The notes: a model not told the origin generated them from the sequence alone. Positions 1 to 8,543 are shown, counted from the first letter of the stretch. The stretch: 15,463 bases of DNA from Fidelibacterota bacterium (GCA_034723415.1 JAYEOX010000079.1:1-15463); one strand, 5' to 3'. Numbers and translations: made by a program.

Positions 1-446
1 AAACATTTTCTTGGTTCGCTTTTGTTAGTTCTTTATTCGTCGCAAAAACATTTTCTTGGTTCGCTTTTGTTAGTTCTTTATTCGTCGCAAAAACATTTTC
101 TTGGTTCGCTTTTGTTTGTTCTTTATTCGTCGCAAAAACATTTTCTTGGTTCGCTTTTGTTTGTTCTTTATTCGTCGCAAAAAACATTTTCTTGGTTCGC
201 TTTTGTTAGTTCTTTATTCGTCGTAAAAACATTTCTTGGTTCGCTTTTGTTAGTTCTTTATTCGTTGCAAAAACATTTCCTTGGTTCGCTTTTGTTAGTT
301 TTTGTTCGTTGCAAAAACATTTCCTTGGTTCGCTTTTGTTAGTTTTTGTTCGTCGCAAAAACATTTTCTCGGTTCGCTTTTGTTAGTTTTTGTTCGTTGC
401 AAAAACATTTCCTTGGTTTGCTTTTGTTAGTTTTTGTTCGTTGCAA
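1..446. repeat. Tandem array of 10 units of 44-46 bp, truncated at window start
   Basis: Unit AAACATTTTCTTGGTTCGCTTTTGTTAGTTCTTTATTCGTCGCAA starts at 1, 46, 91, 136, 181, 227, 271, 315, 359, 403; lengths 45,45,45,45,46,44,44,44,44,44; no unique spacers. Confidence 0.97.
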
Positions 447-485
447 AATTTTTCAATTCCTTTATCCCTCAATCTCCAGGTCTCG

Positions 486-555: not shown

Positions 556-1029
556 CTACGGCATCTTAAAGGAGTGATTCGGATGTCTAACTGTCAGAAC
601 GGGAATTGGCGATTTCTTTACCACTTTTGAAGCTGTAGTACCAAAAATAATTTCAGATAATCCTGAAGTTCCGTGAGTTGCCATCACGATCAGATCAAAT
701 TTTCCCTTTTTTGCGAAGTTAATAATTTCGCTGAATGGTTTGCCATAACAGATTTCATAATTTACCTTTAGTTTTGCAGGAATTTTCTCTTTTAAAATAG
801 TTTCAAATTCCTTTTTAGCAAATTCCGTAGCTTTTTTCTCAATATCATTAATGTTATAGCCAACTCCATAACTTTCCCATGAATAGTCAATAGGAGCAAT
901 GATCGGTTCAATTACATGAATTAGAGTTAAATTTGCAGAATATTTTTTTGTTAGATCAATAGCATGATCTAATGGATACAGGGAATAATCGGAAAAATCA
1001 GTTGTAAATAAGATCTTATTTATTTTCAT
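556..1029 (-). CDS. uspA: Universal stress protein (UspA family)
   Basis: N-terminal KILFTTDFS, LIHV, and C-terminal DLIVMATHG-x9-GTTA...KSPIPVLTV Usp motif; GGAGG RBS upstream (cctcc at 1034-1038). Confidence 0.93.
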   Translation of the reverse strand: MKINKILFTTDFSDYSLYPLDHAIDLTKKYSANLTLIHVIEPIIAPIDYSWESYGVGYNINDIEKKATEFAKKEFETILKEKIPAKLKVNYEICYGKPFSEIINFAKKGKFDLIVMATHGTSGLSEIIFGTTASKVVKKSPIPVLTVRHPNHSFKMP

Positions 1030-1064
1030 AATACCTCCGAATAATTTGTAAAATTAATTTACTT

Positions 1065-1108
1065 AAACTTCCGAAGTTTAGATTTGTTATTTTTAACTTC
1101 GGAAGTTT
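1065..1108. repeat. REP-like inverted repeat / possible stem-loop between vorA and usp
   Basis: AAACTTCCGAAGTT (1065-1078) and its exact reverse complement AACTTCGGAAGTTT (1095-1108), 16-nt loop; a sister element lies at 12798-12829. Confidence 0.8.
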
Positions 1109-1118
1109 TATGTATTAT

Positions 1119-2561
1119 TCATTTCTTATGTTTTTTACCGAATTCAAATCCTTTGTGAAGTGCATTCATATTAAGTTCGTCAAATTTTTTCTTATTAATT
1201 ATGTGCTTAACTCCCCATTCGATATATTTCTTATCAAAATATCCGGTTATTTCTGCATAGAGAGCAAATAGAACCATATTTGCTGCTTTTGTTGAACCAA
1301 GTTTGTCTGCAATTTCAGTTGCTTCTATTGGATAAACATTCACATCGTTCCTTTTCGGAGGAGTGTCAATTAATCCACTATCGTAAATTATATTACCACC
1401 TTTTACAACATCATCTTCAAATTTTTCTAACGATGGTTTGTTAAGTGCAATTAGCGTTGTTGGATTATCAACAATAGGAGCGCCAATACGATTGTCTGAT
1501 ATTTTAACACTGCAATTTGCCGTTCCACCTCTCATTTCCGGTCCGTAACTTGGCAACCAGCTTACTTCATAATTATGTCCCATACCTATATTTGCTAATA
1601 CATAACCTAAACTTAAAACTCCCTGTCCGCCAAATCCGGCAATTTTTATCTCTTCAGAAATATTTTGAATTTCAGGAGTTTTCGGAACATCAGGTAAATT
1701 ATTTAGACTTTGAATATCAAGCAATTTATGAAAGTCACTGTATTTCGGTGTTTCTCTTTTTATAATTGTCGGCTCTCTCTCTTCGCTTACATCTTTTTTA
1801 ACACCAACCGGGAAATATTTTTCCATAACATTTTCAATCCATTCTGTGGAATCGTGTGGAGTTTTTTTCCATCCGGTTGGACAAGCAGATAGAACTTCAA
1901 TAAATGAAAATCCTTTATTGTCTATCTGATTTTTCAATGCTTTTCTAACTGCTTTTCTTGCCTTAGTTATATTTTTTGGATCTGTTAGCATTACTCTTTC
2001 TATATATACCGGCGCTTCTAATGTTGCAAGAATTTCGCTCATTTTCAAAGGATAACCTTCGTTTTGAACAGTTCTACCTCTTGGTGTAGTTGTACTTTTT
2101 TGACCAATTAATGTTGTTGGTGCCATCTGCCCGCCTGTCATTCCATAAGTTGCATTATTGACAAAAAATACGGTAATATTTTCGCCTCTGTTCGCAGCTT
2201 GTAGAATATTATTTCCGCCTATTGAAGCCAAATCGCCATCACCTTGATAAGAGATAACTATTGAATCTGGGTTTGCTCTTTTATATCCCGTTCCAACAGC
2301 AGGATTTCTTCCATGAGCTGATTGAATATTACCATTTTGAAAATAATAGTAAGCAAACACAGAACATCCAACAGGACTTAACAAAACCGCTTTATCATCA
2401 ACACCAAAGTCAACTAATGCTTCGGCAATTAATTTATGTAAAATTCCGTGACCACAACCCGGACAATAATGAGTTACCTTTAATTCTTCACCGGCTTTTC
2501 TTTCAAATGTATCATAAAATATTGATGATTTTTGTAATATTGTAGATTGAATGTCTTTCAT
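1119..2561 (-). CDS. vorA: 2-oxoacid:ferredoxin oxidoreductase, fused beta (TPP-binding) + gamma subunit, VorA type
   Basis: [21 protein letters not shown] motif GDGD...NN, YGMTGGQ, ACPTGW; then gamma domain [28 protein letters not shown]. The 480-aa fusion matches VorA architecture. Confidence 0.9.
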
Positions 2562-3613
2562 ACTTCACCTCGCTTTTTTATATGATTGATAATTTCTTGA
2601 ACTGTCGGAATATTTCCTCCCATGCGATTGTAAAAAGTTACAGGTTTTCTTCCATTTACAACTAATTTTACATCATCAACCATCTGCCCATTACTCATTT
2701 CAATTACATTGAAACTCTTTACATTTTTTTTACTTGCATATTTATCAATTATCTTTTTTGGAAATGGGAATAATGTAATAGGACGAACCATACCTGCTTT
2801 TATTCCAATATCCCTTAATTTGTCAACTACTGTTTGGATTACTCGACTAACTATACCGAAACCAACAACTATTACATCCGCATCATCAGTTTTATATTCT
2901 TCACACATAACTTCATTCTCTTCTATTTCAGCATATTTCTTTTGCAAATGAATATTATGTTTTTCCAGATCATCGGGGGCAAGATCAATCGAACAGATTA
3001 AATTATCCTTTGTCTCTTTTGTAGCTTTTATTGCCCATGGTTTTTCGGGAAATTCTTTTACAGGTTCCGGAAATTCTACAGGTTCCATCATTTGTCCTGT
3101 AAATCCATCAGCTAAAACTACTGCAGGATTACGATATTTATCAGCTAACTCAAATGCTTTCATGGTAAAATCATTCATTTCTTGTGCATTGTTTGGTGCT
3201 AAAACAATTAATTTATAATTTCCATGTCCGCCACCTTTTACAATTTGATTATAATCAGCTTGTGAAGGAGCAATATTTCCTAAACCCGGTCCACCTCTCA
3301 TAACATCAATAATAACACAAGGCAATTCCGATCCGGCTAAATATGAAATTCCTTCCATTTTTAAACTTATTCCCGGGCCGGAACTCGCTGTCATTGTTCT
3401 TACTCCTGCACTTGCTGCTCCATAAACCATATTAATTGCGGCAACTTCACTTTCTGCTTGTAAAAAACTGCTACCAACTAATGGAAAATAGAATGCTGCA
3501 GTTTCAGCTACTTCGCTGGCAGGAGTAATTGGATAACCAAAAAAGTTTTTACAACCGGCAAGTGCTGCACCTCTAATAATTGCTTCATTTCCTTTTATCA
3601 ACATTTTTGACAT
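2558..3613 (-). CDS. vorB: 2-oxoacid:ferredoxin oxidoreductase alpha subunit (2-oxoisovalerate type, VorB)
   Basis: [63 protein letters not shown]; 4-bp overlap with vorA. Confidence 0.92.
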
Positions 3614-3620
3614 AATAACC

Positions 3621-3956
3621 TCACTTTATTTCATTTAAACATTTTGTGCAAATATTTACTTTTGGATTCTTTGCAGATGGAAAAACCTTTTGCTCTTTTT
3701 TACAAACAGGACAATATTGTGTCTCTTTAATATCATCCCATTTTTTAAAAACCGTGATTGTCCCTAATTCCGGACAAGCATAGAAACAAAATCCACAACC
3801 AATGCATCCTTCACCTTTGTAAACCGCATAATGATATCCCATTCGATTTAAAGATTCTGAAAGTGATAAAACATTCACCGGGCAAGCATGAACACAAAGT
3901 TCGCATCCTTTGCATTCATCTTTTTTGATTACAACATGACCATTTGCTTTTGCCAT
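3621..3956 (-). CDS. 2x[4Fe-4S] ferredoxin-like delta subunit (VorC/D) with a C-terminal CxxC...CxxC extension
   Basis: [12 protein letters not shown] and [12 protein letters not shown]; tail CPVC-x17-CTKC. Start moved from 3980 to ATG 3956 because AAGGAGA (3967-3961) precedes it. Confidence 0.88.
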
Positions 3957-3976
3957 AAATTCTCCTTTTTTTATTG

Positions 3977-6094
3977 TCATACATTCTTATTTTTATCAAA
4001 TTTTTTTGGTGGAAATGGTGCTTTTGAAATTCCTAATCTCAATTGGCAGGTCAAACATCTGTTTGCTTCACTTCTTGCTACGGATTCTTCAAAATTTAGT
4101 TCCACTTCTTTATAATTATGTTCTCTATCTTTTAATGGTATTGTTTTTACCGGTTTTCTCTTCCTGTCAGCAAATTTCATGTCTCTACCAAGGGAAATGT
4201 TTGGTTCATCTTTTTCAACAAAATTTTGATCAATATTGCCATCTCCGCCAAGATATTTATCAATAGATTTTGCCCCGATTCTACCATAATTTATTGCATC
4301 AATTACAGATGCAGGTCCGCTGACAACATCACCACCTGCAAATATTCCATCTTTATTTGTTAATAGATTATCATCTGTTTGAATATTGTTCCATTTATCT
4401 AATTCTAATCCGTATTCTTTAGGGACTTCTGATTTTTGTCCGATAGCCATAACAAGTTTATCCAATTCCCAAGTGTATTCACTTCCTTCAATTGGAATGG
4501 GTCTTTTTCTACCACTTGAATCCGGTTCACCTAATTTCATTTTTATACATTTTACATCTAATTTATCTTCTTTTTTACTGTCTTTAATTTCTATTGGATT
4601 ATTTAGAAATTTGAAATTTACTCCTTCATTCATCGCCTCTTTAATTTCTTCATCTGTTGCCGGCATCTGCTCACGAGAACGGCGGTATATTACAGTTGTG
4701 TCAATTCCCTCTCTTAATAAACAACGAGCAACATCCATCGCAACATTTCCGCCGCCAACTATGCCAACTTTTTTTCCAATATCAATTTTTTCATCATTAT
4801 TTATCTTAGCCAATAGTGAAAGTCCGTCTAAAACATTTTTGTGATCAACTCCGGGAACTCGCATTTTCATCACTCCGGAAGTTCCAATTGCAATATAAAC
4901 GGCATCAAAATCTTTTTTCAATAATTTGTCAGGATATGTTATTCTTGAATTTGTCTCAATTTTTACACCAATATTTTCAATTTCTTTAATTTCGTTATCA
5001 AGAATTCTTCTTGGTAATCTATATTTTGGAATTGCGGTTCGCATCATTCCACCGGCTTTTTCATCTGCTTCAAAAATTGTTACAGAATGACCCTTTGTTC
5101 TTAAAAACCAACCGGCAGTTAAACCGGCAGGGCCACTTCCAATTATCGCAACTTTCTTATTTGTATCAGCAGTAATTTTTAATTTATCTTTCCATCTGCC
5201 ATTATCTTTTTCGGCAACGAATCTCTTTAATGCTCTTATTGAAATTGGATCAGTTACATCATTTCTTTTACACTCTGTCTCACATGGATGAAAACAAACT
5301 CTACCAAGAACTTCCACTAACGGAGAAATCTCTTTATTTACTTCATAAGCATCTTGATACTTCCCTTCGGCAATTAATCTGACATAATAAGCTGCATTTG
5401 TTCCTGCCGGACAGGATCCCTTACATGGTACTAAAGTTTTTTCTCTTTCAACTTCATTATCTTCATCAAACTGTCGAGATAGGACATCTGTCAAAGCACC
5501 GGAAGGGCAGACCTCAACACAAGCGAGACAAAATTTACAACCTGATTCTGCAAGTGGTTTATCTTCGGCAGTTGCAATAACTGAATCTATTCCTCTATTT
5601 GCAAAACCAATCACTCCGGTTTCTCTAACTTCTTGACAGATATTTACACATCGACCACAAAGAATACATTTATTCATATCTCGAACAATCAATGGTTCAT
5701 TATCTAAAACTGGCAAGTTCTTTTCTTGTGGAGCATAATTTGATAATATTTTTTTCACTCCGATATAGTCAACTACTTTTTTTAATTGAGAGTTTGGAGG
5801 AATATCTTTTGGTAATTCACTCAAGGTAAGCCAAATCAAATTTTTCCGATGATTCTGCAACTTTTCTGTTTTTGTTTTAACTTTCATTCCATCTAAAATT
5901 ACTGTATTACAAGCTGTAGAAACACCTTGTCTTCCTTCGATTTCTACAATACAAAGTCGGCAAGATGTTTCCTTTTTTAAATCAGGATGATAACATAAGT
6001 TTGGAATATAAATATCATTTTCGAGGGCAACTTCAAGAATTGTTTGATTCTTTTTTGCGGTTATTTTTTTATTATCAATTGTTAAATTTATCAT
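3977..6094 (-). CDS. Fe-S flavoprotein: HydA/NuoG-like N-terminus ([2Fe-2S] + 2x[4Fe-4S]) fused to a GltD/NfnB-like FAD/NAD(P)H domain; probable A subunit of a HydABC-type transhydrogenase
   Basis: IPNLC...SCRLC...[14 protein letters not shown] and [31 protein letters not shown]; two Rossmann motifs ([14 protein letters not shown]) with YRR; FAGGD...GP; C-terminal EANRCLTC. No H-cluster or molybdopterin domain. Confidence 0.88.
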
Positions 6095-6109
6095 TTTTTC
6101 CTAATATTT

Positions 6110-7858
6110 TTATATAATTGCATCAAAATTACAAGCTTCATAACAGGCTTTACATTTTATACATTTATCTTTATTAATATAAGCAACTTCACCTTTTTTC
6201 CATTCGAGTGCATCCGTCGGACAAGCTTTGAAACATAATCCACATTTTGTACATTTGTCCGGAACCACAGTAAATTGAAGTAATTCTTCACACACTTTTG
6301 CTCTACATTTTTTCTCTTCAATATGTTCTTGATACTCTTCGGGAAAATATTTTATCGTTGTCAGAACCGGATTCGGAGCCGTCTGCCCTAAACCACAAAG
6401 TGAAGTCTCTTGAATAGTTGGTGACATCTCTTTCAAAAAATCTAAATCTTCTTGAGTTCCTTTTCCATCAGAAATTTTTTCTAATGTTTCAAGCATTCTT
6501 TTTAAACCAACTCTACAAGGTACACATTTTCCACAAGATTCTGCAACTGTAAAATTTAAAAAATACTTCGCAATATCAATCATACAGGTATCTTCATCCA
6601 TAATAATCATTCCACCTGATCCCATGATCGCACCGGTTTTATTAATTGATTCAAAATCAATCGGTGTTTCAATCAAACTCTCAGGTAAACATCCACCTGA
6701 TGGACCACCGAGTTGCACAGCTTTAAATTTCTTTCTCTTATTCTTTAATCCGCCACCCGGCCCATAAATCAATTCTTTAATCGTAGTTCCCATTGGCACT
6801 TCAACAAGTCCTGTGTTTTTTATTTTTCCGGCTAATGCAAATACTTTCGTTCCTGAGCTGTTTTTGGTTCCTTTTGAAGCAAACCATTTTGATCCGTTTG
6901 TAATAATGTGTCTAATATTTGCAAGCGTTTCTACATTATTAATGATAGTAGGATAGCCCCAAAGTCCTTTGTTAGCTGGAAATGGAGGTCTTGGTTTGGG
7001 ACGACCGCGGCGGCCTTCGATAGATGCAATAAGAGCTGTCTCTTCACCACAGACAAATGCACCGGCTCCGGCTTTTATTTTTAAATTAAATGAAAAATCT
7101 GTTCCGAGAATATTCTCTCCGATAAAACCTTTCTCTTTTGCCTGTTTAATAGCAATATTTAATCGCTTAATTGCAAGCGGATATTCGGCACGACAATAAA
7201 TATATCCGTTATTTGCGCCGATCGTATATCCTGCAATTATCATTCCTTCCAATATAGCATGCGGATCGCTTTCGAGAACACTTCTATCCATAAATGCACC
7301 CGGATCACCTTCATCAGCATTACAGATAATATATTTTGTATCACTCTCAGCTTTTTTCCCAAATCCCCATTTTATTCCTGTTGGGAATCCACCTCCACCG
7401 CGACCTTTCAATCCCGAATCAGTAACTTCATCTAAAACTTCTTCTCTCGACATTTTAAATGCTTTTTGAAGTGCTTTATATCCATCTTGTTCCAAGTAAG
7501 AATCAATTTTTTCCGGATCAATTATTCCACAATTTTTTAAGACGATTCTCTCTTGATCTTTGAAAAAATTTTCATAATTTTTATCGGCAAGCCGCTTTTT
7601 GTATAATTCATTATTTATTATATGAGATTTTACTATATTAGTTACATCTTTCGGTTTCACATTTATATAAGTTGTCTCTTTTGAATCTATAATCTCTACA
7701 ATTACGTCAACAAATAATCCCTTATCACCCGTTTTAATGATTTCATATTTGTCCGAAAGTTTGTTTTTTTCCAATTCCGATTGAAAAATATCCGCTACTT
7801 CATCCGCTCCGGCAGATAATCCACTTGTTCCTACACATATTAATATTTTATTTTTCAT
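6110..7858 (-). CDS. nuoF: NuoF/HydB-like FMN/NADH-binding subunit with N-terminal thioredoxin-like and C-terminal 2x[4Fe-4S] domains
   Basis: GLKGRGGGGFPTG, CNADEGDPGAFMDR, GAGAFVCGEETAL, GGPSGGC, ESCGKCVPCR...LCGLG; C-terminal CTKCGLCFKACP / CIKCKACYEAC. HydB-like length; no other complex I genes nearby. Confidence 0.93.
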   Translation of the reverse strand: MKNKILICVGTSGLSAGADEVADIFQSELEKNKLSDKYEIIKTGDKGLFVDVIVEIIDSKETTYINVKPKDVTNIVKSHIINNELYKKRLADKNYENFFKDQERIVLKNCGIIDPEKIDSYLEQDGYKALQKAFKMSREEVLDEVTDSGLKGRGGGGFPTGIKWGFGKKAESDTKYIICNADEGDPGAFMDRSVLESDPHAILEGMIIAGYTIGANNGYIYCRAEYPLAIKRLNIAIKQAKEKGFIGENILGTDFSFNLKIKAGAGAFVCGEETALIASIEGRRGRPKPRPPFPANKGLWGYPTIINNVETLANIRHIITNGSKWFASKGTKNSSGTKVFALAGKIKNTGLVEVPMGTTIKELIYGPGGGLKNKRKKFKAVQLGGPSGGCLPESLIETPIDFESINKTGAIMGSGGMIIMDEDTCMIDIAKYFLNFTVAESCGKCVPCRVGLKRMLETLEKISDGKGTQEDLDFLKEMSPTIQETSLCGLGQTAPNPVLTTIKYFPEEYQEHIEEKKCRAKVCEELLQFTVVPDKCTKCGLCFKACPTDALEWKKGEVAYINKDKCIKCKACYEACNFDAII

Positions 7859-8321
7859 TTGTTTTTCTATAATTGTTTAATATATCATCTATTTCTTTTA
7901 ATTTTACCTTGCCGTAGAATTTTTCATCCACTGCGACTACCGGAGCAATTCCACAAGCACCGAGACAAGCAACTCGTTCAAGCGAAAACAATCCGTCTTC
8001 AGTTGTCTCACCATCTTCTATGCCTAATTTATTAGAAAAATTATCCAATAATACTTTCCCGCCCATAACATGACATGCTGTTCCTTGGCAAACTCTGATT
8101 ATATGTTTTCCCGGAGGATTTAAATGAAATTGACTGTAAAATGTCAGAACTCCATAAATTTCTACCGGAAATATTGACAATTCTTCAGCTATCAGGTAAA
8201 TAGATTCCTTCGGAACATATCCATATTCAGTTTGTACATCTTGTAGCAGAGGGATTAATGCACTTTTTTCTTTCCCATTTTCAGTTATTAGTGATTTTGT
8301 TTTTGAAATAATTTCGGTCAT
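7848..8321 (-). CDS. nuoE: NuoE/HydC-like [2Fe-2S] subunit
   Basis: LIPLLQ.VQ..YGY, TFYSQF, CQGTAC...CLGAC; overlaps the nuoF-like start by 11 bp. Confidence 0.93.
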   Translation of the reverse strand: MTEIISKTKSLITENGKEKSALIPLLQDVQTEYGYVPKESIYLIAEELSIFPVEIYGVLTFYSQFHLNPPGKHIIRVCQGTACHVMGGKVLLDNFSNKLGIEDGETTEDGLFSLERVACLGACGIAPVVAVDEKFYGKVKLKEIDDILNNYRKTNEK

Positions 8322-8423
8322 ATTACTCTTTTACCTTTTATCGAATAATTATTATTTAACTTGTTTCATAAATTTTAATATGGTGTATCAATTAATATTA
8401 TTCAATTTTCCCATCATTTTATT

Positions 8424-8452
8424 ATTATAATAAAATAATAAATATTTATTAA
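8424..8452 (-). promoter_or_regulatory. Candidate sigma70 promoter for the oxidoreductase operon
   Basis: Minus strand TTAATA (8452-8447), 17 nt, TATAAT (8429-8424). Very AT-rich context, so weak evidence. Confidence 0.35.
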
Positions 8453-8543
8453 AATAGAAAGGAAATTTTAAAAAAATGAAAAGTAAAATGTGAAAAGTGT
8501 GGAATTCAAAATTCTCAATTCGTGGTTATTAATTAGTAATTTA

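Follow-up and report, generated by a model that had tools for sequence, protein, structure and literature searches.

An NfnABC-like gene cassette with a degenerate B5 site beside VOR genes in a Marinimicrobia genus

Gene content and transcription of the locus

In the window, the whole 15,463-nucleotide stretch of Fidelibacterota DNA analysed here, six genes lie on one strand in the order C-B-A-delta-alpha-beta/gamma (Table 1), with gaps of -11, 15, 20, 7 and -4 bp; the spacers flanking the block measure 222 bp on its upstream side and 89 bp on its downstream side. The delta start was set at the ATG at 3956, which is preceded by GGAG, and a second in-frame ATG at 3980 overlaps the stop of A. 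This arrangement had been reported in the first-pass annotation, and the open reading frames, the span and all five gaps were confirmed, while Pfam and NCBIfam domain matches support the identities given there to C, B, A, delta, alpha and beta/gamma. A universal stress protein gene also lies downstream of vor in a sister genus, g3.

Table 1. Features of the six-gene locus and its flanks
Feature	Coordinates	Strand	Length and description
C subunit (NuoE/HydC/NfnC-like)	7848..8321	-	157 aa; Pfam PF01257, E 4e-52; NuoE-type 2Fe-2S
B subunit (NuoF/HydB/NfnB-like)	6110..7858	-	582 aa; Complex1_51K + SLBB + NADH_4Fe-4S + two Fer4; FMN/NAD site
A subunit	3977..6094	-	705 aa; Fer2_4 + Fer4_Nqo3 + Fer4_20 + Pyr_redox_2
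VOR delta subunit	3621..3956	-	111 aa; Pfam Fer4_7; 2x[4Fe-4S] + C-terminal CxxC-x17-CxxC
VOR alpha subunit (VorB family)	2558..3613	-	351 aa; NCBIfam PRK07119
VOR beta/gamma fusion	1119..2561	-	480 aa; Pfam PF02775 (TPP_enzyme_C) + PF01558 (POR gamma)
Spacer 5' of C, AT-rich, probable promoter region	8322..8543	-	222 bp (gap size)
Universal stress protein gene, 3' of vor	556..1029	-	Pfam PF00582

As had been proposed earlier, the ABC and vor genes probably form one operon, given the short gaps; in the window, the A-delta spacer contains no terminator-like site or hairpin. The promoter scan of the window was at chance level (73 found versus 77.1 +/- 8.7), which leaves the spacing as the ground for co-transcription. 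Within this chance-level scan, two sigma70-like sites (10/12) lie upstream of C, at 8494-8465 and 8452-8424, and a search for a Rex-like box gave no match under 3 mismatches.

Cofactor sites of the A, B and C subunits

The A subunit has ligands for a [2Fe-2S] cluster, A1 (C34, C45, C48 and C62), and for two [4Fe-4S] clusters, A2/A4 (eight Cys at 143-196), followed by a GltD-like FAD/NADP(H) domain that would hold the A6 and A7 clusters, and the A1 and A2 sites of the Bfu family are both present. The GltD-like domain has C228, C267, C271 and K290, with Lys290 at the A7 ligand position; these four residues, R359 and Y470-R471-R472 are invariant in 107/107 A homologs, and the motif suggests a preference of A for NADP. 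A has the GltD-like domain, Lys-ligated A7 and FAD-adjacent Arg of Nfn-Bfu enzymes; the insertion of GltD after A1, the His-ligated A3 path and the C-terminal NuoG/FdhF domain of that group were not found in it. A hydrogenase-type A3 motif occurs in 0/120 A homologs, the window A has no spare Cys or His for A3, and no FdhF-like domain is present in its 705 aa. The best sequence and fold matches of A are NfnA/StnC and, judged by its sequence, A is a rearranged NfnA without A3 or the FdhF domain, a compact subunit that would offer a different wiring.

B and C, in one probable operon, have the BfuB domains (FMN/NADH, SLBB, B1 and C-terminal Fer4), the BfuC subunit and the B1, B2, B3, B4 and C1 ligands listed for the Bfu family (Schut 2022). 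In C, the C1 [2Fe-2S] ligands are C78, C83, C119 and C123, invariant in 42 aligned sequences, and in B the ligands of B1 (C442/445/448/488), of the B2 hinge Zn site (C425, H512, C518 and C523; 3Cys/1His) and of B3/B4 (eight C-terminal Cys) are invariant across homologs. The markers of bifurcating beta subunits, which in T. maritima numbering are A/E232, M234, F367 and GGPSG (Losey 2020; PMC7311640), are present in B as A188, M190, GGPSG 384-388 and a Phe, F326, which aligns with a Phe in both 7T2R_B of A. mobile and 9BOV_B of C. saccharolyticus and is equated with position 367 by offset.

The N-terminal B5 site of B (Adams numbering) is degenerate, retaining one of the four Cys listed for the Bfu family in Schut 2022 (C8), with G13, D45 and F49 replacing the others. 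The first-pass annotation mentioned neither this site nor the lack of a His-ligated cluster in A. The metagenome set contains 77 B subunits, of which 10 are truncated; the replacement motif is fixed in 60/67 B partners, and C8, S12, D45 and D51 are fixed in 59-60/60 intact members of the clade. In C. saccharolyticus NfnB, where the B5 Zn has 3Cys/1Glu ligands (PMC11829005), the residue aligned with D51 is a Glu adjoining the B5 cysteines; C8, S12, D45 and D51 may form a single-metal site. Five Cys-containing B N-termini are nested within the same clade in a FastTree tree that contains no characterised Bfu sequence, so both B5 states occur with the same A; rows without a match to the motif received the tree label 'B5cys' by default, so that P0159, which is also without those Cys, is mislabelled.

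The role of B5 is disputed. For T. kivui HydABC and Stn, it has been described as indispensable, acting as a relay or gate, and the C82G/C86G variant of T. kivui HydABC showed roughly tenfold poorer bifurcation (PMC10021017), whereas two proven bifurcating NfnABCs hold Zn, not a cluster, at B5, with B1-FMN-C1 as the minimal site (PMC11829005, PMC12018979). The characterised bifurcating B subunits compared keep 3-4 Cys at B5. The ABC clade would amount to a natural deletion, kept under purifying selection, of three of the site's four cysteines; close relatives carry them, so such an enzyme pair would allow a direct test of the minimal B1-FMN-C1 model.

We propose that ABC is a streamlined NfnABC-type transhydrogenase, with the predicted reaction reduced ferredoxin + NADH + 2 NADP+ <-> 2 NADPH, and the link from reduced ferredoxin and NADH to NADPH suggested in the first-pass annotation is plausible. 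Electrons from ferredoxin via B3/B4 to C1, and from NADH to FMN, would converge at the B1-FMN-C1 site, and the onward path would be B1 -> A1 -> A2 -> A4 -> A6 -> A7 -> FAD -> NADP+. Because ligands for A3, through which Stn and NfnABC pass electrons, are missing from A, the route must run via A4. In the ferredoxin trap, the leg formed by the B N-terminal domain would then hold no cluster (or a single metal), and it is fairly likely that the ABC clade bifurcates without a B5 cluster.

Alternatively, ABC might have lost tight bifurcation with the B5 cluster and might act, uncoupled or with loose coupling, as an NADPH:NAD+ transhydrogenase or a ferredoxin:NAD(P)+ reductase, serving as a valve complementing NfnSL, which we regard as somewhat unlikely. 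The single remaining B5 cysteine and the behaviour of the T. kivui variant would fit such a loss, as would the finding that 3/4 congeners encode an NfnS homolog with a GltD-like gene next to it and that NfnSL adjoins the cassette in three metagenome loci, a co-occurrence that implies redundancy if ABC has the same function. However, the B3/B4 ferredoxin domain and hinge Zn ligands, which are missing from the non-bifurcating homologs named in PMC11829005, are invariant here, the beta-subunit markers are present, and enzymes with Zn-only B5 do bifurcate.

NfnS was not found in the window's own genome, and mutual exclusion of NfnSL and the cassette is ruled out by the three congeners with NfnS. 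The commonest cassette neighbour is glutamate dehydrogenase, at 13/79 loci or 5/23 clusters at 75% (raw counts); five full-length copies were scored, of which all pass the NADP-specific model PRK09414 and two score higher on PRK14030, a model whose name gives no cofactor. In many uncultured anaerobes, ABC-type genes carry the annotation NuoF or glutamate synthase, and they probably encode NADPH-balancing enzymes.

The VOR genes and the distribution of the pairing

The alpha subunit scores 539.6 bits against the NCBIfam VorB model PRK07119 (cutoff 399), the beta/gamma fusion matches separate beta and gamma chains in the PDB, and the TPP and gamma domains and the 2x[4Fe-4S] delta of the VorB family are all present; going by the family name, oxidation of branched-chain 2-oxoacids is predicted. 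In delta, 12 Cys are invariant in 17 family sequences, and its C-terminal 4-Cys tail, a predicted zinc ribbon (weak Zn-finger match), is invariant also in genera without the ABC module. As a substitute for B5 this tail is ruled out, since it is conserved without the module and B5-less B subunits exist without VOR. An alpha homolog is encoded by 32/33 family genomes, with about 68-74% identity outside the genus, and the vor neighbours in sister genera differ from ABC; VOR is native to the family. In genus g3, vor is accompanied by CoA-transferase-like, Glu dehydrogenase and Met-lyase-like genes, a context that fits amino-acid fermentation.

The six-gene order is present in 4/4 congeners (2 whole, 2 split across contig ends) and persists over 80-90% protein identity within the genus. 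Elsewhere, VOR was found downstream of C-B-A in 0/57 non-congener metagenome loci (39 clusters) and 0/5 Thermoplasmatota genomes, and a Bfu gene was found near 0/16 vor loci in sister genera. The pairing is confined to this Marinimicrobia genus; beyond it, the refuting condition named in the first-pass annotation, an unconserved linkage, applies, and a conserved, dedicated ABC-VOR system is not supported. Elsewhere C-B-A is a widespread cassette that stands alone; it is complete in 53/53 metagenome loci with 2.6 kb upstream, and its neighbours are varied; the metagenome set comprises 82 pattern matches, 2 of them without a retrieved locus, and L068 is without an A ORF. Among 401 Marinimicrobia genomes, the A-family motif occurs in this genus only, with a reversed control pattern matching 5/401, and no A-family match at E<=1e-170 was found across 121 genomes from the phylum to which G402 belongs, a set without positive control. 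Genome G248 has two 2-mismatch matches to the motif. Probably the ancestor of the genus acquired the cassette, which inserted upstream of vor; loss of ABC in other lineages may be an alternative. ABC matches vor in GC and GC3, so its composition carries no trace of transfer.

The cassette could also have landed upstream of vor by chance, with a vor promoter in the A-delta spacer and no special functional link, although we consider this unlikely. The genes downstream of the cassette elsewhere are mostly unrelated housekeeping genes, the spacers 5' of delta are long in sister genus g2, and in four congeners and in L103, TATAAT or TGTAAT lies about 30 nt 5' of the delta start (AT-rich DNA), so that vor may have separate transcription. 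Against this, the window has AAGAAT at the position of that -10-like hexamer, the A-delta spacer, hairpin-free in the window, measures 20-39 bp across most of the genus and 90 bp in a single case, and the arrangement has persisted over the divergence given above.

The strong form of the first-pass proposal, a six-subunit VOR-Nfn-Bfu complex in which delta would dock in the B/C ferredoxin site and channel 2-oxoacid electrons, with NADH, to NADP+, is very unlikely. It would account for the tight spacing conserved in the genus, has a parallel in an unrelated locus, L116, where a monomeric PFOR lies 163 bp downstream of A, and would resemble the Por-Bfu already proposed; but the genes are neither fused nor interleaved, VOR does not follow the cassette in the non-congener loci or the archaeal genomes, the features of delta occur in the absence of ABC and the B5-less motif in the absence of VOR, and the genome encodes a free ferredoxin of 62 aa, which also rules out its absence as the cause of direct docking. 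Moreover, A carries its own NADP domain, so that the A-side input of the proposed Por-Bfu would be occupied. Scarcely probable, too, is a combined reading of ABC as the smallest natural bifurcating transhydrogenase, with no B5 redox metal and with A4 wiring, that in this genus is assembled with VOR ferredoxin-free, as an early unfused Por-Bfu-type stage (branched-chain 2-oxoacids + NADH -> NADPH).

With about even confidence, the locus is read here as an NfnABC-type cassette and a native vor, probably co-transcribed and likely linked via free ferredoxin, through which VOR and ABC would exchange electrons, and not as a six-subunit complex. The ABC module is the less ordinary part of the locus, and the VOR pairing, an operon rearrangement at genus level, is of lesser weight.

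Comparison with known systems

The Methanothermobacter-type VOR has fused beta and gamma subunits. With the three-subunit VorB-family VOR (PRK07119), the locus has the delta-alpha-beta/gamma order in common, and delta here has an extra C-terminal 4-Cys domain. Residues 1-204 of A follow the N-terminal layout of HydA in HydABC (T. maritima 7P5H, T. kivui 8A6T and A. woodii 7Q4V), and B is most similar to 7T2R_B of NiFe-HydABCSL (767 bits); compared with these enzymes, a GltD-like domain replaces the H-cluster domain, and the His-ligated cluster and B5 [2Fe-2S] ligands are absent.

The pairing had been put forward as a candidate for an undescribed system, and in part it was not new, for a Bfu core beside a 2-oxoacid oxidoreductase was already predicted as Por-Bfu in Dehalococcoides (12 sequences; Schut et al. 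2022, PMC9304861), which shares with our locus BfuABC genes next to 2-oxoacid:ferredoxin oxidoreductase subunits and a BfuA without A3. What stands is the difference in composition: Por-Bfu has a short Type 2 BfuA without catalytic or NADP domain and four POR subunits, neither of which was found here, whereas our A has a FAD/NADP domain and is paired with a VorB-type enzyme of three genes, in a link limited to one genus. No description of the clade or of a VOR-Nfn-Bfu operon was found in the literature, and Supplementary Table 1 of PMC9304861 may include the clade.

In StnABC of Sporomusa ovata (8OH5/8OH9; PMC10482914), K170 and R239 correspond to the invariant K290 and R359 and the same reaction is predicted, whereas the Stn electron route runs via an A3-equivalent cluster and Stn carries a [2Fe-2S] in the B N-terminal domain, neither of which is present here. 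Compared with NfnABC (C. saccharolyticus 9BOV/9BP5, PMC11829005; Thermococcus sibiricus 9N5U/9N5V, PMC12018979), A is shorter (705 versus 963-1178 aa) and is without the FdhF-like domain or A3 ligands, its two-[4Fe-4S] domain lies before, not after, the GltD domain, the predicted A model superposes with a whole-chain rmsd of 8-11 A, and B5 has one Cys instead of three. The two have in common, however, the C-B-A order, the FMN, B1, B2(Zn), B3, B4 and C1 ligands, the GltD-like FAD domain and the Lys-ligated A7, and NfnABC provides the top sequence matches of A (494 and 452 bits) and the fold matches of its predicted model (Z 44-47). Together with the invariant K290, R359 and YRR, these ligand sets and best matches bear out the NfnABC/Stn-like nature of ABC indicated in the first reading of the sequence.

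Gene order and its conservation

The first-pass annotation had described six genes in the order C-B-A-delta-alpha-beta/gamma with gaps of -11, 15, 20, 7 and -4 bp, and this matches the open reading frames exactly. By Pfam and NCBIfam, C is NuoE-like, B is NuoF-like with a ferredoxin domain at its C-terminus and A is a Fer2-Fer4-GltD fusion (together the ABC cassette), while in the vor set delta is ferredoxin-like, alpha belongs to the VorB family (NCBIfam, 539.6 bits against a cutoff of 399) and beta and gamma are fused in one gene. A promoter scan of the window remained at chance level and the A-delta spacer holds no terminator-like site, so that co-transcription of ABC and vor is judged from gene spacing, which makes it probable. 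Neutral adjacency, with vor under a separate promoter, is distinctly unlikely, and a -10-like hexamer preceding delta in the congeners is a weak hint in its favour.

The same order is present in all four congeners, whole in G004 and G002 and broken by contig ends in G001 and G003. Full-length A was not found in the other 36 of the 40 relatives searched, and among 401 genomes of the phylum the A-family motif occurs only in the window genome and the four congeners, barring two 2-mismatch matches in genome G248, which lie at the control-pattern rate. The nearest A records (83-87% identity) are titled Candidatus Neomarinimicrobiota or Marinimicrobia. The vor alpha gene is found in 32 of 33 family genomes, with about 68-74% identity outside the genus, and no Bfu gene lies near vor in 16 vor loci of the sister genera g2 and g3. 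Upstream of vor, g3 carries CoA-transferase-like, PPDK-like, glutamate dehydrogenase and methionine-lyase-like genes, and g2 mostly what we take to be an RseP-like gene; in three loci examined, g2 also encodes a conventional NfnABC (A of 966-973 aa) away from vor. It appears that vor is native and that the cassette was gained by the ancestor of the window's genus; GC and GC3 carry no trace of this acquisition.

Coordinates of features in the window, its genome (G000) and fetched loci
Feature	Location	Remarks
ABC-vor genes	window 1119-8321 (-)	six genes
Delta C-terminal domain	window 3624-3740	extra CxxC-x17-CxxC; invariant in 17 family sequences
REP-like palindrome	window 1064-1108	in the vor beta/gamma-usp interval, stem of 14 bp; arms in 24-28 exact copies across genome, often paired
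Further REP-like arm	near window 12817	
Tandem repeat	window 1-448	44-45-bp unit x10 at contig end; unit core without match elsewhere in genome or in fetched loci; minus strand an ORF of 15-aa repeats, open at contig edge
Spacer upstream of C in G004	L021:11171-12363	about 1190 bp vs 222 bp in window; insertion possible
NuoI-type/GltD-like FAD/NADP fusion operons, membrane complex I-like	G000:C8:17780-19573; G000:C10:940-2805	C8 copy: 871 on PRK13984 (cutoff 946)
Monomeric PFOR	L116:4441-8049	1203 aa; begins 163 bp past A, same strand
BfuB-GltD fusion	L030:6339-9401	Dehalococcoidia record; 1020 aa, then short A, Fdh-like gene, NfnSL-like genes

Compact A and degenerate B5

Residues 1-204 of A have the HydA layout (A1 plus two [4Fe-4S] clusters), and residues 222-684 align with the GltD-like domain found in NfnA/StnC, with C228/C267/C271/K290 as the counterpart of the Lys-ligated A7 cluster; K290, R359 and a YRR motif are invariant across all 107 A homologs. 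A1, A2, A4, A6 and A7 account for 19 of the 21 cysteines; at the A3 positions, the His/Cys residues are substituted. Since the available text on Stn (PMC10482914) leads electrons through the A3 equivalent and that on the T. sibiricus enzyme likewise uses A3, the path in this variant would have to run through A4. The AlphaFold2 model of A is confident (pLDDT 87.7, pTM 0.83); its best fold matches, NfnA/StnC, reach Z 44.5-47.7 but with an rmsd of 8.4 Å, against 2.0 Å for the fit to the GltD domain of P. furiosus NfnI alone, which is consistent with a different domain packing in the model.

In B and C, sites B1, B2 (hinge Zn site), B3, B4 and C1 have full ligand sets, invariant in the alignments (numbering from the accessible part of PMC11829005), and the bifurcating beta-subunit markers given in excerpts of PMC7311640 are present. 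At B5, where 7T2R_B has C11/C16 and a later Cys pair, C8 alone is kept. The loss of these cysteines is not decay, as 60 of 67 intact B partners carry a replacement motif, CxGTSG...GD(R/K)G(L/Y)F(R)D, in this region, with C8, S12, D45 and D51 fixed in the motif-bearing subunits. In a tree built from the B core with the N-terminal domain left out, the motif-bearing subunits form one clade (FastTree support 100, 58 rows). Nested in this B5-less clade at three positions are five Cys-type N-termini (loci L042, L100, L107, L065 and L055), which suggests repeated domain exchange; two more Cys-type B partners of the same A family fall outside it.

Bifurcation by a B subunit of this type is favoured by the NfnABC enzymes of C. 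saccharolyticus and T. sibiricus, which have Zn at B5, yet bifurcate, and whose N-terminal B5 domain is one leg of a ferredoxin trap (PMC11829005 and PMC12018979, partial texts). It is disfavoured by the T. kivui C82G/C86G variant, whose activity fell about tenfold (available part of PMC10021017), and by the three cysteines that the C. saccharolyticus enzyme retains at B5 (PMC11829005, same excerpt). An ABC without tight bifurcation is unlikely but deserves weight.

The cassette in other organisms

A homologs at 55-62% over residues 1-330 form at least 115 clusters, with names among them such as Thermoplasmatota, Planctomycetota, Omnitrophota, WOR-3, KSB1, Dehalococcoidia and Desulfobacterales. 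Scanning of metagenomes produced 82 matches, from which 80 loci were fetched, 79 with an A ORF; B adjoins A in 77 of these, and C-B-A is complete in all 53 loci with enough room. None of the 57 loci from non-congeners (39 clusters at 90%, at least 500 bp of downstream sequence each) has a VOR gene downstream, and the five of 201 Thermoplasmatota genomes searched that carry C-B-A are all without VOR. The VOR linkage, which the earlier proposal of one operon, possibly one complex, would need to be conserved, is specific to the window's genus; a dedicated six-subunit complex is very improbable. The PFOR in L116 is the sole independent oxoacid-oxidoreductase adjacency to the cassette found. In three loci an IOR lies 2.9-6.5 kb downstream with other genes intervening, and one locus has a 2-oxoacid oxidoreductase 5.7 kb upstream.

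By raw count, glutamate dehydrogenase is the top neighbour, at 13 of 79 loci, or 10 of 50 clusters at 90% and 5 of 23 at 75%; each of the five full-length copies tested passes PRK09414, an NADP-specific model, and two of them score higher on PRK14030. A PPDK_N-domain protein of about 1000 aa recurs beside glutamate dehydrogenase and the cassette in 9 of 50 clusters (loci L044, L049, L052, L058, L188 and L190; also G000:C69). Moreover, in L041, L063 and L110 the cassette is immediately preceded by NfnS-NfnL genes and a gene for an HTH regulator, and L041 and L111 contain another Bfu set, whose A is short.

Proposed function and relation to known systems

The window's genome, which is 94% complete, encodes proteins read as PFOR, another 2-oxoacid oxidoreductase, Rnf, a hydrogenase of the Hox type, a split gdhA product and two membrane complexes with NuoI-GltD fusions, the last being candidate NADP(H)-linked ion pumps (some labels by sequence inspection), as well as a free ferredoxin of 62 aa. 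Neither NfnS nor a conventional NfnA was found in it; NfnS stands beside a GltD-like gene in three of four congeners, so the cassette does not strictly replace NfnSL. We give about even chances to two enzymes, probably on one transcript, coupled through free ferredoxin: VOR would be the source of reduced ferredoxin, from which, together with NADH, ABC would form NADPH. Alternatively, ABC might run in reverse and reoxidise NADPH from glutamate dehydrogenase.

The pairing of Bfu with an oxoacid oxidoreductase has already been proposed as Por-Bfu (PMC9304861, available part). No description of this B5-less clade or of this VOR-ABC operon was found in the literature searched, including the accessible portions of PMC13768988, PMC11406978 and PMC12016516, with subscription journals thinly covered. 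What merits testing here is the streamlined cassette. ABC may function like NfnABC/StnABC, but it departs from these systems as published in two defining features, namely the ligands at B5 and the architecture of NfnA.
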